This document shows, one piece after another, positions 32,403 through 41,659 of a stretch of 64,000 nt of DNA. The position numbers and the translations under genes are program-made. The notes beneath the pieces are model-generated. The model searched no databases and had not been told where the DNA came from. It saw only the letters and a list, made by a program, of their open reading frames with translations. The first letter of the stretch is position 1. Each line of letters begins with the position of its first letter. The DNA is taken from the NCBI GenBank assembly GCA_044225555.1, contig JBGAIM010000018.1, positions 73,382-137,381 on the forward strand. The letters are read 5' to 3'. The stretch comes from Limisphaerales bacterium (lineage in GTDB: Bacteria; Verrucomicrobiota; Verrucomicrobiia; Limisphaerales; JADLHS01).

Positions 32403-32554
32403 CGATTTATGATTTGCGATTTACGATTTGCTGTGCGAATCGAACAGGCTGCGCGTCAGCACGCGGCCGAGTCTCCAAAACTCAGCTTACTCCGGGCAGC
32501 ACGGAGGCAGCCTGCCAAATCATAAATCGGAAATCGGAAATCATAAATTCATTT
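32403..32554. repeat. Inverted repeat built from 7-nt periodic units (GATTTNN x4 / AAATCNN x5) bracketing tRNA-like 32446..32517
   Basis: Left arm 32403-32430 is cgatttatgatttgcgatttacgatttg. Right arm 32518-32554 is aaatcataaatcggaaatcggaaatcataaattcattt. The arms are imperfectly complementary. Confidence 0.6.
32446..32517 (+). tRNA. tRNA-like gene, anticodon CCA (Trp-type), mini D-arm, GGCAGCA T-loop
   Basis: Acceptor AGGCTGC/GCAGCCT (A1-T72). D hairpin GCGT-CAGC-ACGC. AC loop CTCCAAA. T arm CTCCG-GGCAGCA-CGGAG. G73 plus CCA. 72 nt. Confidence 0.55.
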
Positions 32555-32629
32555 GGGGTCGTGGCAGACAAGCAATGCACTTGCCCTGCAAGCAAGCTGA
32601 TGCGGGAGCGTTACCCGCCGACTCCACCA
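32555..32629 (+). tRNA. tRNA-like gene, anticodon TGC (Ala-type), AGCGTTA T-loop
   Basis: Acceptor GGGGTCG/CGACTCC with G3.T70 wobble. AC stem CTTGC/GCAAG, loop CCTGCAA (C33). T arm GCGGG-AGCGTTA-CCCGC. A73 plus CCA. 75 nt. Confidence 0.6.
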
Positions 32630-32637
32630 TTTCACTT

Positions 32638-32710
32638 TGCGGGGAGTATGAGATTCAGGCGAGCCTCATAAGCTCTGCCTTCGTGGGCGCAACTCCCACC
32701 CCCGCTACCA
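32638..32710 (+). tRNA. tRNA-like gene, anticodon CAT (Met-type, 1-72 mismatch)
   Basis: Acceptor TGCGGGG/CCCCGCT (positions 2-7 paired, T1xT72 mismatch). AC loop CTCATAA. T arm GTGGG-CGCAACT-CCCAC. A73 plus CCA. D region reduced (TGA-GAT-TCA). Confidence 0.5.
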
Positions 32711-32731
32711 CTACTTGCGTAGGGCCACAAA

Positions 32732-32821
32732 GGGAAGTGATCCAGTTGCCCGACTGTAAATCGGGTGTCGCAAAACAAAACTGGAAGTGACGAACTGGAG
32801 CGTTACCAGCACTTCCCACCA
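32732..32821 (+). tRNA. tRNA-like gene, anticodon GTA (Tyr-type), long extra region
   Basis: Acceptor GGGAAGT/ACTTCCC. AC stem CCCGA/TCGGG, loop CTGTAAA. 28-nt extra region in which CTGGA can pair with TCCAG at positions 10-14. T arm ACTGG-AGCGTTA-CCAGC. A73 plus CCA. 90 nt. Confidence 0.5.
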
Positions 32822-32844
32822 GCCTTAGCAAGGCATGCCATCAT

Positions 32845-32919
32845 GCTCTCGTAGCTGAATAGAAAAGCAACCCGTTGTCTGCGGGAAGAGTGTGAGTGCA
32901 AGTCTCACCGGGAGCGCCA
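32845..32919 (+). tRNA. tRNA-like gene, anticodon GTC (Asp-type), G55 T-loop
   Basis: Acceptor GCTCTCG/CGGGAGC. D arm GCT-GAATAGAAA-AGC. AC stem CCCG/CGGG, loop TTGTCTG (pyrimidine at 37, atypical). T arm GTGAG-TGCAAGT-CTCAC. G73 plus CCA. 75 nt. Confidence 0.5.
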
Positions 32920-33013
32920 ATTTAAAATCTCACCGCGCCGCCGTGTCCCAAGGTTTTCGGCAGCGCGATTCTCCACTCCGACGTTCGATTCAATCGTTCG
33001 GCGTCCATTTCAT

Positions 33014-33152
33014 CGGAGCGTAGCTCAGTCTTTGGAGCGCGCGGCTTGGGCCCGCGAGGTCGCAGGTGATTACAATTCGCGATAGCGAACAGATCAATTT
33101 GGGGAACCCATCTTGTAAGGCTTGGGAAGCCCAAATCCTGCCGTTCCGACCA
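33014..33152 (+). tRNA. tRNA-like gene, anticodon TGG (Pro-type), with a 63-nt insertion inside the T-loop
   Basis: Acceptor CGGAGCG/CGTTCCG (C1-G72). D arm GCTC-AGTCTTTG-GAGC. AC stem CGCGG/CCGCG, loop CTTGGGC. T stem GCAGG(33062-66)/CCTGC(33137-41) with loop TG^CAAAT interrupted by 33069-33131. A73 plus CCA. Confidence 0.5.
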
Positions 33153-33162
33153 TTTTCAAAAC

Positions 33163-33239
33163 GCTGCCGTGGCCGAATCATTCAGGCATCCGTCTTCTAA
33201 GCGGACTTCATGCAGGTGGAAATCCTGCCGGCAGCGCCA
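33163..33239 (+). tRNA. tRNA-like gene, anticodon TCT (Arg-type)
   Basis: Acceptor GCTGCCG/CGGCAGC. D arm GCC-GAATCATTCA-GGC. AC stem TCCGT/GCGGA, loop CTTCTAA. T arm GCAGG-TGGAAAT-CCTGC. G73 plus CCA. 77 nt. Confidence 0.6.
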
Positions 33240-33243
33240 ATCT

Positions 33244-33337
33244 GTTGGTTAAAAGTTGAAGGTTACAAGTTGCAGGTTTAATTGCGCGCGCGCAGATGCG
33301 TTCCAACCTGCAACCTTCAACCGACAACTTGCAACCC
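33244..33337. repeat. Inverted repeat built from 7-nt periodic units (GTTGNAG / CTNCAAC type)
   Basis: Left arm gttggttaaaagttgaaggttacaagttgcaggtt. Right arm aacctgcaaccttcaaccgacaacttgcaaccc. GC-rich central loop taattgcgcgcgcgcagatgcgttcc. Confidence 0.6.
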
Positions 33338-33343
33338 TCGAAA

Positions 33344-33418
33344 TGCCAGGTGGTGTCAAAGTAGCACGGCGGCCTGTTAAGCCGTTCGGTGTTGGTGCGA
33401 GTCCAACCCTGGCAGCCA
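33344..33418 (+). tRNA. tRNA-like gene, anticodon GTT (Asn-type)
   Basis: Acceptor TGCCAGG/CCTGGCA (T1-A72). D arm GTG-TCAAAGTAG-CAC. AC stem GCGGC/GCCGT, loop CTGTTAA. T arm GTTGG-TGCGAGT-CCAAC. G73 plus CCA. 75 nt. Confidence 0.65.
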
Positions 33419-33424
33419 ATTTTA

Positions 33425-33518
33425 TTTTCGATCTACGAATGACGATTTACGAAACGCTTGGAGATTTGCCACTACCAGTCAGCGCGTAAATCCTAAATCC
33501 AAAATCGCAAATCTCGCG
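33425..33518. repeat. Inverted repeat built from 7-nt periodic units (CGATTTA type)
   Basis: Left arm ttttcgatctacgaatgacgatttacgaaacgc. Right arm gcgcgtaaatcctaaatccaaaatcgcaaatctcgcg. The arms are imperfectly complementary. Confidence 0.5.
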
Positions 33519-33607
33519 GAAGGCAGGCAGATATAAGCTGGCTGCACCTGTCTCGAAAACAGGTTCCGTTTCCACGGAGGTCGGAGCATTACCGACGCCT
33601 TCCGCCA
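33518..33607 (+). tRNA. tRNA-like gene, anticodon CGA (Ser-type, class II variable arm)
   Basis: Acceptor GGAAGGC/GCCTTCC. D arm GCAG-ATATAAGCTGG-CTGC. AC stem CCTGT/ACAGG, loop CTCGAAA. Variable arm TCCG-TTTCCA-CGGA. T arm GTCGG-AGCATTA-CCGAC. G73 plus CCA. 90 nt. Confidence 0.65.
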
Positions 33608-40849: not shown

Positions 40850-40870
40850 GCCTTTGCAGGCGGCCACCAT

Positions 40871-40962
40871 GCGCGCGTAGTTCAAAGAGAACCGGCGAGC
40901 TTATACCTCGCATCGCACTAGATGAGTGCCGAGTTCCGGAGCGTTACCGGACGCGCGCACCA
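40871..40962 (+). tRNA. tRNA-like gene, anticodon TAT (Ile-type?) with a long extra arm
   Basis: Acceptor GCGCGCG/CGCGCGC. D arm GTTC-AAAGA-GAAC. AC stem GCGAG/CTCGC, loop CTTATAC. Extra arm GCAC-TAGATGA-GTGC. T arm TCCGG-AGCGTTA-CCGGA. A73 plus CCA. 92 nt. Identity uncertain. Confidence 0.45.
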
Positions 40963-40969
40963 ATTCATC

Positions 40970-41045
40970 GCCCTCAAAGCATTGGTAGCGATGCCATCGC
41001 TCGGTAAGCGAATGCAACCCGGTGCAACTCCGGGTGAGGGCTCCA
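40970..41045 (+). tRNA. tRNA-like gene, anticodon GGT (Thr-type)
   Basis: Acceptor GCCCTCA/TGAGGGC. D arm GCAT-TGGTAGCG-ATGC. AC stem TCGC/GCGA, loop TCGGTAA (C33). T arm CCCGG-TGCAACT-CCGGG. T73 plus CCA. 76 nt. Confidence 0.55.
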
Positions 41046-41056
41046 TTCTCAAACAT

Positions 41057-41125
41057 CGCAGTCGAGCCAGTGCTCAGGTGGGTTTCATAAGCCCGCCGGG
41101 TCCGGGGCGGCACCGGAGACTGCGA
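41057..41125 (+). tRNA. tRNA-like gene, anticodon CAT (Met-type 2), mini D-arm, no encoded CCA
   Basis: Acceptor CGCAGTC/GACTGCG. D hairpin GAGC-CAGT-GCTC. AC stem TGGGT/GCCCG, loop TTCATAA. T arm TCCGG-GGCGGCA-CCGGA. A73 is followed by GGC. Confidence 0.5.
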
Positions 41126-41148
41126 GGCATAGGCATGCCGGCCACCTC

Positions 41149-41220
41149 GCCTCCATGCAGCAGCCTGCGGATTTCTTTTGTAAAGAATTCCTGCCGGAGC
41201 ATCACCGGCTGGAGGCTCCA
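41149..41220 (+). tRNA. tRNA-like gene, anticodon TGT (Thr-type), mini D-arm
   Basis: Acceptor GCCTCCA/TGGAGGC. D hairpin CAG-CAGC-CTG. AC stem TTTCT/AGAAT (extendable to 8 pairs), loop TTTGTAA. T arm GCCGG-AGCATCA-CCGGC. T73 plus CCA. 72 nt. Confidence 0.55.
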
Positions 41221-41237
41221 TTTTCATTTCCGTTTTC

Positions 41238-41321
41238 GGGCGAGTGGTTCAGAGGGAATAGCAGACCCCGCAGATCGAGAGTCTGCGAGCCTTGGAGGTG
41301 CAAGTCCTCTCTCGCCCACCA
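41238..41321 (+). tRNA. tRNA-like gene, anticodon GAG (Leu-type subfamily)
   Basis: Acceptor GGGCGAG/CTCGCCC. D arm GGG-AATAGCAGA-CCC. AC stem GCAGA/TCTGC, loop TCGAGAG (C33). Variable GAGCCTT. T arm GGAGG-TGCAAGT-CCTCT. A73 plus CCA. 84 nt. Confidence 0.55.
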
Positions 41322-41325
41322 TTTC

Positions 41326-41399
41326 GGCCTGCAAGCATTAAAGTGATGCAACGGACTTTTAATCCGTAGAACAGGGAGCGTTACCCTGGCGGGCCACCA
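41326..41399 (+). tRNA. tRNA-like gene, anticodon TTT (Lys-type)
   Basis: Acceptor GGCCTGC/GCGGGCC. D arm GCAT-TAAAGTG-ATGC. AC stem ACGGA/TCCGT, loop CTTTTAA. T arm CAGGG-AGCGTTA-CCCTG. A73 plus CCA. 74 nt. Confidence 0.65.
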
Positions 41400-41405
41400 A
41401 TTCAT

Positions 41406-41479
41406 TGCCTTGTGGTGTAACAGCAGCATGCCGGGTTTTGACCCCGACGGTCTTGGTGCGAATCCAAGCGAGGCAGCCA
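41406..41479 (+). tRNA. tRNA-like gene, anticodon TTG (Gln-type)
   Basis: Acceptor TGCCTTG/CGAGGCA (T1-A72). D arm GTG-TAACAGCAG-CAT. AC stem CGGG/CCCG, loop TTTTGAC. T arm CTTGG-TGCGAAT-CCAAG. G73 plus CCA. 74 nt. Confidence 0.6.
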
Positions 41480-41502
41480 ATTTTGGCAGGTCGAGCTTCG
41501 AC

Positions 41503-41576
41503 CGCCCGGTGGTGAAATAGAATCACGTCTGGCCTACACCCAGAAATCGAGGGGGCAGAACCTTCCCGGGCGACCA
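41503..41576 (+). tRNA. tRNA-like gene, anticodon TAC (Val-type)
   Basis: Acceptor CGCCCGG/CCGGGCG. D arm GTG-AAATAGAAT-CAC. AC stem TCTGG/CCAGA, loop CCTACAC (C33). T arm GAGGG-GGCAGAA-CCTTC. A73 plus CCA. 74 nt. Confidence 0.55.
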
Positions 41577-41584
41577 CTTTCAAT

Positions 41585-41659
41585 TGCCTCGTTGCATAAT
41601 CAGGAGTGCACCGGTCTCTGACACCGGAGGACCTGGAGCAAAACCAGGCGAGGCAGCCA
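41585..41659 (+). tRNA. tRNA-like gene, anticodon CTG (Gln-type)
   Basis: Acceptor TGCCTCG/CGAGGCA (T1-A72). D arm GCA-TAATCAGGAG-TGC. AC stem CCGGT/ACCGG, loop CTCTGAC. T arm CCTGG-AGCAAAA-CCAGG. G73 plus CCA. 75 nt. Confidence 0.6.

Follow-up and report, generated by a model that had tools for sequence, protein, structure and literature searches.

Aminoacylation identity elements and an apparently re-coded elbow in a tRNA gene array of a Limisphaerales bacterium

Can tRNA-like genes that depart from the usual signature of the tRNA elbow still encode tRNAs that are charged and decode? The question is raised by an array of 33 tRNA-like genes located in a 64,000-nucleotide stretch of a Limisphaerales bacterium (contig JBGAIM010000018.1, positions 73,382 to 137,381 of the forward strand), the whole of which is hereafter called the window. 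All 33 genes lie on the plus strand between 32319 and 41659, in two blocks accompanied by an isolated His type at 35503 and a Cys gene at 39341, and their anticodons cover all 20 amino acids. A first-pass annotation, made from the letters of the window, had proposed that the acceptor ends of these genes match bacterial synthetase rules anticodon by anticodon despite an aberrant elbow. The reading favored here, with a rough probability of 0.55, is that the locus would be a supernumerary array of the L-array class (known from the plasmid delta of Anabaena PCC 7120), encoding a complete set of chargeable tRNAs with a T-loop-type elbow and a plausible escape from enzymes that need U54-U55. The genes are arranged as follows.

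32319..34161, plus strand: tRNA block A, 15 genes, all with G55 and an encoded CCA
Block A, plus strand: Gly GCC 32319, Trp CCA 32446, Ala TGC 32555, Met CAT (gene 1) 32638, Tyr GTA 32732
Block A, plus strand: Asp GTC 32845, Pro TGG 33014, Arg TCT 33163, Asn GTT 33344, Ser CGA 33518
Block A, plus strand: Ile GAT 33625, Phe GAA 33732, Glu TTC 33813, Arg GCG 33911, Thr CGT 34086
33070..33132, plus strand: 63-nucleotide (nt) structured insertion in the Pro T-loop, with a P1 helix, a GNRA hairpin (TTCGC-GATA-GCGAA) and a hairpin GGCTT-GGG-AAGCC
39341..39412, plus strand: Cys (GCA) gene with A1-T72 and T73, without encoded CCA (CCC follows)
40166..41659, plus strand: tRNA block C, 16 genes
Block C, plus strand: Val(CAC)-like 40166, Lys CTT 40240, Arg TCG 40320, Leu CAG 40402
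Block C, plus strand: Leu TAA 40491, Leu CAA 40574, Ser GCT 40760, TAT type-II 40871
Block C, plus strand: Thr GGT 40970, Met CAT (gene 2) 41057, Thr TGT 41149, Leu GAG 41238
Block C, plus strand: Lys TTT 41326, Gln TTG 41406, Val TAC 41503, Gln CTG 41585

Identity elements at the acceptor ends

Positions 1-72, 2-71, 3-70 and 73 were re-derived gene by gene by means of an explicit parser of the cloverleaf that takes the T arm and the 3' end as anchors. Gene boundaries were cross-checked with ARAGORN, the Rfam tRNA model and a family-specific covariance model (CM) built from 20 sequences, and the parser boundaries agree with Rfam and the CM wherever those detect a gene. The window genes display a 7-bp acceptor stem, 5-bp anticodon and T stems, a 7-nt anticodon loop and N73. 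The family CM recovered 33/33 genes on the plus strand, most with E < 0.01, default ARAGORN found 12 of the 33, and Rfam RF00005 gave 18 matches of at least 29 bits in the whole-window scan (21 tRNA matches of at least 29 bits under laxer filters). Below the Rfam threshold stand Trp, the first CAT gene, Tyr, Pro, both Ser, Glu, two Leu, Lys CTT, TAT, two Thr and the second CAT gene. ARAGORN at relaxed thresholds, which returned many false matches on both strands, was dropped for the parser. As default tRNA finders miss half of the array genes, the tRNA complements of Verrucomicrobiota metagenome-assembled genomes (MAGs) and of large phages are under-counted.

When positions 1-72, 3-70 and 73 and the anticodon were tabulated with this parser, all ten acceptor-end statements of the first-pass annotation held at the gene positions listed above. 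The Ala gene (TGC, 32555..32629) carries the announced G3.T70 and A73, and also G1-C72, G2-C71 and CCA, while both Gln types (41406, 41585) and the Asn type (33344) have T1-A72 and G73. The Trp gene (CCA, 32446..32517) has the expected A1-T72 and G73 next to G2-C71 and G3-C70. C1-G72 and A73 of the Pro type (33014) are found only when the halves flanking the 63-nt T-loop insertion are joined, with the 3' end at 33142-33152. A73 is present in all four Leu types (40402, 40491, 40574, 41238) and T73 in the three Thr types (34086, 40970, 41149), which further share G1-C72 and C2-G71. The Ser types (33518, 40760) combine G73 and a hairpin extra arm with G1-C72, G2-C71 and A3-T70, and the long extra region claimed for the Tyr type (32732-32821) measures 28 nt, alongside G1-C72 and A73. 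Unlisted elements that fit as well are Cys T73, Asp G73 and Pro G37.

The tenth statement concerned CAT gene 1 (32638..32710, plus strand, T-loop CGCAACT), in which position 1-72 is indeed unpaired (T1xT72, with A73). The analogy drawn with bacterial initiator tRNA is weak, the mismatch being T1xT72 and not C1xA72 and the anticodon stem (CGAGC/GCTCT) being devoid of the run of three consecutive G-C pairs. Moreover, the 1-72 mismatch is not conserved, since the ortholog at L057 (related array loci are designated by such handles) has a T1-A72 pair. As for individual folds, the Ala gene has the T-loop AGCGTTA (swapped pair A54..T58, G55) and scores 66.2 bits with the CM and 43 bits with the Rfam tRNA model. 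The Trp gene, with a D-loop of just 4 nt (CAGC) and the T-loop GGCAGCA, has a weak CM score of 12.8 bits; its orthologs in L049, L006 and L023 show a compensatory acceptor change.

Taken over the window, N73 matches the bacterial rule for the anticodon in 30/33 genes, with a permutation mean of 16.0 and 0/100,000 permutations reaching 30. Under strict E. coli rules, 27/33 genes match, again with 0/100,000 permutations. Three genes depart from the rule: Gly and the His type at 35503, both with A73, and the Val(CAC)-like element at 40166, with C73. The reference identity rules are reportedly those of Giege, Sissler and Florentz in 1998, complemented by housekeeping tRNAs of related array contigs.

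Related arrays were gathered with two sequence patterns, and the resulting family is biased toward particular Leu-type genes and TGCRA loops. A pattern derived from the window Leu-type genes led to 71 loci in species-representative genomes, 58 of them labelled as Verrucomicrobiota lineages, and a generic pattern of three tandem GGTGCRANNCC T arms led to 41 loci on about 33 IMG/VR contigs. At a score of at least 22, the parser gave 826 matches in real versus 18 in shuffled sequence. It delineated 798 non-overlapping family genes (about 69 sources), of which around 90% encode CCA. Dense arrays, with at least 10 G55 genes within 8 kb, are found in 40/69 sources, and in 67/69 these genes share one strand. 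Arrays are present on contigs binned to other phyla as well as on the IMG/VR contigs; many of the latter are 100-340 kb long with a GC content of 0.41-0.67, and they are viral by database label, with few PHROG matches.

In this family, the N73 rule is followed by 408/468 unique genes (permutation mean 220; 0/20,000) and by 42/45 anticodon majorities. G3:T70 occurs in 10/10 unique Ala genes versus 5/458 others, and T1-A72 in 7/7 Asn and 43/46 Gln genes versus 6/415 others. A73 is found in 118/119 Leu genes, C1-G72/A73 and G37 in 21/21 Pro genes, G1-C72, G2-C71 and A3-T70 in 24/24 Ser GCT genes, C2-G71 in 37/37 Thr genes, and T2-A71 in 27/28 Glu CTC genes. In Cys genes, T73 is kept in 32/33 while 1-72 is AT, GC, CG or GT. 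The His genes fall into two subtypes, one with G-1 and C73 (12/18, G-1 being found in 24/745 non-His genes) and the other with CAGG../..CCTG, A73 and no G-1 (6/18). The window has the second only, as a His(GTG) type (35503..35577, plus strand) with G55, A73, no G-1 and 5/7 acceptor pairs. The IMG/VR arrays contribute 449 G55 genes, of which 393 follow the N73 rule; Ala G3:T70 is found there in 25/25, Pro C1-G72/A73 in 39/39 and Asp G73 in 21/21.

The cloverleaf itself covaries. When 142 distinct sequences were aligned to the CM, an alignment thus fitted to the model, 98.1% of the cells were paired and double substitutions occurred in 21/21 cloverleaf pairs, with a covariation score of 0.92 versus 0.21 for shuffled sequences and at most 0.17 for slid partners. 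Anticodon loops are conserved in the family, with a purine at 37 (G37 in Pro). On three related contigs, canonical tRNAs (GG D-loops, TTCRA T-loops) are found away from the arrays (L015, Gly CCC; L037, Arg TCG; L069, Asn and Thr TGT), so that the array genes there are supernumerary to canonical tRNAs. The housekeeping tRNAs of those contigs follow the identity rules of the arrays, with T1-A72/G73 for Asn and G1-C72/C2-G71/T73 for Thr.

The earlier argument that random or decaying repeats would not keep such elements is thus borne out, since the identity elements follow the anticodon among the window genes and across over 1,200 related genes. Because N73 is fixed while 1-72 shifts, because 21 pairs covary, and because housekeeping tRNAs share the same rules, it can be strongly inferred from sequence that the array tRNAs would be chargeable by the host aminoacyl-tRNA synthetases (aaRSs). 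Very probably, these genes encode tRNAs that are both charged and used in decoding.

The elbow of the array tRNAs

Transfer RNAs normally use a UUCRA T-loop together with G18, and few nucleotides in biology are as conserved as U55 (as Psi55) and G18. The array genes depart from the U54-U55-C56 / G18-G19 signature. Indeed, G55 is found in 32/33 window genes and in 763/798 family genes (96%), and the first five T-loop nucleotides define the following main classes.

UGNRA: 472 genes
AGNNU: 89 genes
GGNNG: 72 genes
CGNRA: 55 genes
AGNNA: 45 genes

The first-pass annotation had called this elbow aberrant. In the sense of a lost elbow, this does not stand, as the genes retain G53-C61, R57, the pair 54-58 and a 19-56 pair of the Watson-Crick type, with covariation. 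G53-C61 is present in 140/142 sequences, and a purine is retained at 57. Among 333 unique genes, the 54-58 pair is T-A in 222, A-T in 23, G-G in 32, C-A in 33 and A-A in 11. At position 56, 676 genes carry C, 74 carry A and 41 carry G, and the D-loop base located 3 nt before the 3' strand of the D-stem covaries with this position (G-C 177, T-A 22, C-G 7, T.G 9), with a mutual information of 0.30 bits versus 0.05-0.16 at neighboring positions. A D-loop A followed by the complement of nt 56 is found in 93% of the genes with C56, 65% of those with A56 and 53% of those with G56. The D-loops paired with C56 T-loops carry AG in 93%, and GG in just 47/267.

The canonical anatomy is described in PMC7912444. 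The consensus of riboswitch T-loops is UGNRA and CGNRA, GGAAG is an rRNA T-loop, and in these classes the base that intercalates between nucleotides 4 and 5 of the loop is an adenosine instead of a guanosine (bioRxiv 10.1101/2022.12.26.521914). The array loops resemble the T-loops of riboswitches, RNase P and rRNA (bioRxiv 10.1101/2022.12.26.521914) in their pentanucleotide classes, in their 1-5 pair (U-A, C-A or G-G) and in offering an adenosine to intercalate (A18). They differ in that the latter dock on receptors within one RNA domain, whereas the array loops stand in for the T-Psi-C loop. The elbow therefore appears to be re-coded from UUCRA + G18 to NGNRA + A18 with the 19-56 platform kept, and the L-shape and stacking platform of the array tRNAs are probably preserved.

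The list of elbow readers that the array was said to evade is only partly right. Escape from the U54/U55-reading enzymes, i.e., TruB and Cash-type T-loop tRNases, is plausible by analogy. RNase P, the L1 stalk and T-boxes, on the other hand, are probably still served because the 19-56 stacking platform is kept. Nor does G55 appear to be an organism-wide property, since canonical tRNAs lie on related array contigs and canonical loops are found in Y-RNA-like modules of the window.

Neighboring genes, known relatives and possible roles

The following genes are interspersed with the array or lie next to it.

34256-35320, minus strand: TIGR03067-domain open reading frame (ORF) between the tRNA blocks
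Between the tRNA blocks, minus strand: DUF1579 ORF
35585..36800, plus strand: six tandem Y-RNA-like (YrlA-like) modules upstream of rsr
36853..38553, plus strand: Ro60/Rsr ortholog with TROVE and vWA_Ro60 domains (Pfam E 1.7e-47 and 2.3e-60)
38639..39292, plus strand: conserved ORF downstream of rsr, with homologs in 10 array loci
41781..42365, plus strand: HNH endonuclease (HNH_4, Pfam), 120 nt downstream of the last tRNA gene

Of all array neighbors, the HNH gene recurs most often (41/71 loci, 74-89% identity). Its product has 6,357 homologous clusters, the best 120 of them at 86-92% identity, and matches Anabaena all8564 with 43% identity over the HNH domain (BLASTP, E 1e-21). More distant homologs (30-45%) occur on plasmids of Nostoc, Acaryochloris and Mycobacterium (by tblastn) and of Rhodococcus, and in tRNA-rich phages; on Acaryochloris pREB6, the HNH gene is present with no tRNAs nearby. 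With more than 120 distinct 90%-identity clusters at 86-92%, the protein is unusually conserved for a putative homing endonuclease, and 112/194 residues are invariant across a 23-sequence alignment. A role of G55 in protecting the DNA of an array against cleavage by the homing HNH that accompanies it was discarded, homologous HNH genes flanking canonical-loop arrays.

Rsr adjoins the arrays in 20/71 loci with 68-89% identity, and is also found in L079. In each of the six modules upstream of it, a closing stem of the GATGGGC..GCCCATC type is combined with a tRNA-like domain whose T-loop (GGTTCRA) and D-loop are canonical, and all six lie within 4 kb of rsr, which is the genomic context of YrlA. 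Matches to Rfam YrlA (RF02553) reach 38.7 and 34.2 bits, below the threshold of 69, and Rfam tRNA matches inside the modules start at 35631, 35819 and 36228. As in known Rsr(Ro60)-YrlA loci (PMC4201824), a TROVE/vWA protein is preceded immediately upstream by tRNA-like Y RNAs with canonical T- and D-loops; unlike in those loci, six tandem modules are embedded here in a 33-gene tRNA array. Just upstream of rsr, a 60-aa ORF (36465-36647) carries a C-terminal CPCGSG motif of the SEC-C type, and its DNA is conserved in L055, L023, L060 and L030. The ORF at 38639..39292 has no Pfam, NCBIfam or PADLOC match. ORF clustering across the GTDB loci, the loci of the first viral scan and the window gave no conserved neighbor beyond HNH, Rsr and this ORF; the top ORF clusters were rejected as neighbors, being spurious translations of tRNA DNA.

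Since it combines a dense co-oriented tRNA run with an HNH homologous to all8564, the window array is, from its sequence, a member of the L-array class. In Anabaena PCC 7120, the plasmid delta L-array (PMC8421152, PMC4758250) likewise has dozens of dense co-oriented tRNA genes for most amino acids, with encoded CCA and an adjacent HNH gene of the same family (all8564); it is extra to the housekeeping tRNAs and has a patchy mobile distribution, two traits that the window array would probably share. L-arrays have this HNH conserved upstream, are extra to the housekeeping set and spread horizontally; they are induced by translational stress and co-regulated with rtcB, and 23/26 array tRNAs are charged in vivo in Anabaena (PMC8421152). 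Genes for RNA repair or quality control adjoin both, rtcB in Anabaena and Ro60 and Y RNA in the window. The array of phage Tunturi_5 comes with a CCA-adding enzyme and RtcB, and that of phage Mx1 with a TROVE protein. Unlike the genes described here, those of the Anabaena array, of a Mycolicibacterium plasmid array and of the arrays in Tunturi_5 and Mx1 show GTTCRA T-loops and GG D-loops of the canonical kind, with the exception of one Anabaena tRNA, Glu CTC, with TGCAA. A further difference from the Anabaena L-array is that some isoacceptors have rebuilt D/variable regions here and that a structured 63-nt element inserts into loops. The L-array class is already known and the re-coded elbow is the new part: no description of G55 tRNA arrays was found in the searched literature, which is not proof that none exists.

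In the mechanism proposed, the array would encode a complete translation-competent tRNA set, extra to the housekeeping tRNAs, in which purifying selection would hold the aaRS determinants (N73, pairs 1-72, 2-71 and 3-70, His G-1, Pro G37, Ser extra arms). The elbow would have shifted from G18, G19 / U54, U55, C56 to A18, N19 / N54, G55, N56, with 19-56 and 54-58 still pairing and the T-Psi-C signature lost. The resulting pool would be charged and would decode, yet would not be a substrate for TruB or for Cash/Schlafen T-loop-cutting tRNases, and could act as a back-up or replacement when canonical tRNAs are attacked or translation is stressed. Such a module would travel with the HNH gene, and often with Ro60 and Y RNA, and would be common to Verrucomicrobiota chromosomes and large phage-like contigs. 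The closest precedent for the nuclease step is CbCash, a cA4-activated Schlafen nuclease that cuts tRNAs 5' of U55 and whose cleavage is abolished by substitutions at U54 or U55 (PMC13462974). Another is given by phage tRNAs that escape anticodon nucleases through loop changes (PMC10264068, PMC11555353). Like those tRNAs, the G55 arrays would be extra tRNAs on mobile or viral DNA with the sequence altered where a nuclease would read, but the known cases are phage-encoded and altered in the anticodon loop of single tRNAs, whereas here the T-loop/D-loop signature of a whole set is changed, and the window array is chromosomal, with related arrays on IMG/VR contigs. By analogy with these cases, the proposal that the re-coded elbow makes the array tRNAs non-substrates for enzymes needing U54-U55 is tentative, at somewhat below even odds. 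More speculative, and rather improbable, is the extension in which G55/A18 tRNAs would form a second self-contained pool, unseen by any enzyme that keys on the T-Psi-C U-turn, and would provide nuclease-proof translation for phages and Verrucomicrobiota with self/non-self discrimination at the elbow. There, canonical tRNAs of a host or rival phage would be destroyed by Cash/Schlafen-like tRNases, or possibly by the linked HNH, and the array would sustain protein synthesis.

Several observations weigh against the favored reading. Some window genes look impaired, namely Pro, split by 63 nt, the His type at 35503, Cys and CAT gene 2, without CCA, and Gly with A73; moreover, Leu and Tyr types are without a normal D arm or variable arm, and LeuRS and TyrRS may need these. 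The within-family variability of N73 (0.15) is just modestly below that of stem positions, and part of the identity signal is therefore inheritance. C33 replaces U33 in about 10% of the family genes, concentrated in Val TAC (26/35), Leu GAG (13/18) and Thr GGT (11/17), with Glu TTC (33813) as a window example; in this subset, a second U-turn uridine is thus changed. Neither the window nor the set of conserved neighbors yielded a gene for a T-loop nuclease, and PADLOC, NCBIfam and Pfam gave no tRNase or defense gene in the window. Finally, G55 is not needed for an array as such because HNH-linked arrays exist with canonical T-loops.

The alternatives differ mainly in what they make of G55 and of the neighbors. 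G55/A18 could be neutral, a few G55 ancestors having been duplicated and switched in anticodon and identity, so that these would be ordinary L-arrays giving extra supply. Consistent with such a founder effect, the T-loop AGCGTTA is common to Ala, Tyr, TAT and Lys TTT in the window and to Ile GAT and Pro CGG elsewhere (the window Ile GAT has AGCGTCA), and near-identical Phe and Tyr variants differ in their anticodon. UGNRA is in addition a known functional T-loop class (bioRxiv 10.1101/2022.12.26.521914), and one Anabaena array tRNA already has TGCAA. Yet G55 persists in 96% of about 800 genes and in viral arrays with a GC content of 0.41-0.67 while 54, 56, 58 and the D-loop partner change coordinately, and the canonical-loop genes inside some arrays indicate that reversion or mixing is possible yet rare; a founder effect is thus considered unlikely. 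Decay, or a G55 present in all tRNAs of the organism, would account for the 12 (default ARAGORN) and 18 (Rfam) genes found out of 33 and for the few damaged members. It is very hard to reconcile with compensatory covariation in 21/21 pairs and orthologs conserved across genomes, nor does a lineage-wide G55 fit with canonical tRNAs on the same contigs and YrlA-like modules that keep canonical loops, and hardly any weight is given to it.

The constancy of the HNH gene, unusual for a selfish gene in its conservation, allows another scheme, in which HNH itself would be a nuclease acting on canonical tRNAs or tRNA genes and the G55 set a resistant replacement, serving translation takeover in phages and an immunity or abortive-infection device in cells. 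PADLOC reports weak matches to PtuB (E 4e-4), an HNH protein that depletes tRNA-Tyr when expressed with PtuA (PMC11555353; Septu, PMC13096335), and viral contigs also carry the arrays together with HNH. This scheme is nevertheless distinctly improbable, as the best matches of this HNH are the DNA-cutting HNH domains of Cas9 and IscB, homologous genes adjoin canonical T-loop arrays and the published reading is that of a homing endonuclease (PMC8421152); the AlphaFold model, with a mean predicted local distance difference test score of 39 from a shallow alignment, is unusable. Ro60 and the six Y-RNA-like genes within the array, a recurrent association, rather evoke a non-translational role, be it as toxin decoys or sponges (the sponge idea has been raised for L-arrays, PMC8421152), in Ro60/Y RNA quality control (as substrates or partners) or as non-ribosomal aminoacyl donors, and C33 in about 10% of genes and the odd Leu/Tyr architectures might impair decoding. 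However, the anticodon repertoire is full for 20 amino acids, anticodon loops are conserved, and a decoy needs no correct match of anticodon and identity for each amino acid, whereas translation does, which leaves this role slightly less probable still than a nuclease role for HNH.

If the favored reading of a chargeable set with a T-loop-type elbow is correct, a natural tRNA set without U55/G18 would indicate that the elbow can be built from the other major T-loop class with the aaRS identity code intact. The re-coded set, seen again in some 70 bacterial genomes and on dozens of large viral contigs, would offer a natural test bed for the roles of Psi55, m5U54 and G18 in charging, EF-Tu binding, ribosome transit and RNase P processing. 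It would also provide a direct and testable link to the newly described T-loop-cutting defense nucleases, and a possible source of tRNA scaffolds resistant to them.

Unusual array members and surroundings

The insertion of the Pro(TGG) gene (33014..33152, plus strand, G37) interrupts the T-loop between nt 56 and 57, and the L023 ortholog is uninterrupted, with an empty site GCAAG TGAAAAT CCTGC. The element, of about 62 nt with the GNRA hairpin TTCGC-GAYA-GCGAA, was found by nhmmer in 21 copies from 11 sources, shows four pairs with compensatory changes (RNAalifold) and has no match in Rfam. Copies lie at L055:4979, L055:690, L055:7864, L011:196 and L016:3300, in L010 (four copies) and L024 (two), and further copies in L029, L002, L036, L070 and L049. 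They mostly interrupt the T-loop (Pro, Arg TCG, Arg CCT, Arg CCG, Val CAC, Leu CAA/TAA/GAG, Thr), other sites being a D-loop (Val TAC), a variable region (Glu) and one Y-RNA-like module. The element could be an intron-like or mobile RNA element.

Other members have rebuilt arms. The Tyr(GTA) gene (32732..32821, plus strand) is devoid of a D hairpin, and its D-region TCCAG pairs with CTGGA in the loop of the long extra hairpin (GTCGC..GTGAC). This pseudoknot-like arrangement shows compensatory changes of both helices in five orthologs (TCCGG/CCGGA, GTCAC/GTGAC). In the four Leu types (40402-40485, 40491-40572, 40574-40657, 41238-41321), the long variable arm is missing; they have instead a D-like hairpin (loop GAAYAGCAGA) that is embraced, together with the anticodon arm, by a helix GGYT/AGCC, in agreement with minimum-free-energy folds. 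Leu TAA is without a full CCA, its 3' CC overlapping nucleotide 1 of Leu CAA, and some other loci also carry class-I-like Leu genes with a 5-nt variable region.

The type-II tRNA with a TAT anticodon (40871-40962) has a 23-nt hairpin extra arm, A73 and a 5-nt D-loop. It was found in 44 places by blastn, and the parser delineated 30 family genes, all with A73. IleRS and LeuRS are its candidate synthetases; if LeuRS charges it, AUA would be decoded as Leu. Block C opens with the Val(CAC)-like element (40163-40235), which has a 10-bp terminal helix, a canonical TTCAACT T-loop, C73 and no CCA, with 31 blastn matches at 85-95% identity and a weak Rfam tRNA-Sec match (23 bits). CAT gene 2 (41057-41125) has C1-G72, A73, GGG/CCC in the anticodon stem and a 4-nt D-loop; GGC follows in place of CCA in the window, CCA being kept in 7/9 orthologs examined. 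It could be a Met, an initiator-like or a lysidine-type Ile tRNA.

A scan of the locus for promoters and terminators remained at background level. The array spacers carry long inverted repeats of short AT-rich motifs (GATTTACGATTT / AAATCGTAAATC and similar), at 32394-32445 with 32518-32554 (bracketing the Trp gene), 33240-33343, 33419-33517 and 33989-34085, which may be processing or regulatory stems. The 94-nt spacer 32920-33013 ends in ...GGCGTCCA and holds hairpins; its sole weak relative is in L057 (76%), and it may be a degraded tRNA gene.

The window belongs to a cellular chromosome; its GC content is about 60%, it carries genes of the Planctomycetes-Verrucomicrobia-Chlamydiae type (norB, TetR, OmpA, GH127, GH31, DUF1559/N-methyl proteins), and none of its flanking genes recur at other array loci. 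The nearest array loci are Verrucomicrobiota MAGs, the Rsr protein being 89% identical in L023. Unrelated to the tRNA array, two large minus-strand proteins encoded at 15549-22711 have a hydrazine-synthase alpha middle domain (PF18582), one of them with cytochrome c motifs, and a beta-propeller/cytochrome c protein is encoded between them.

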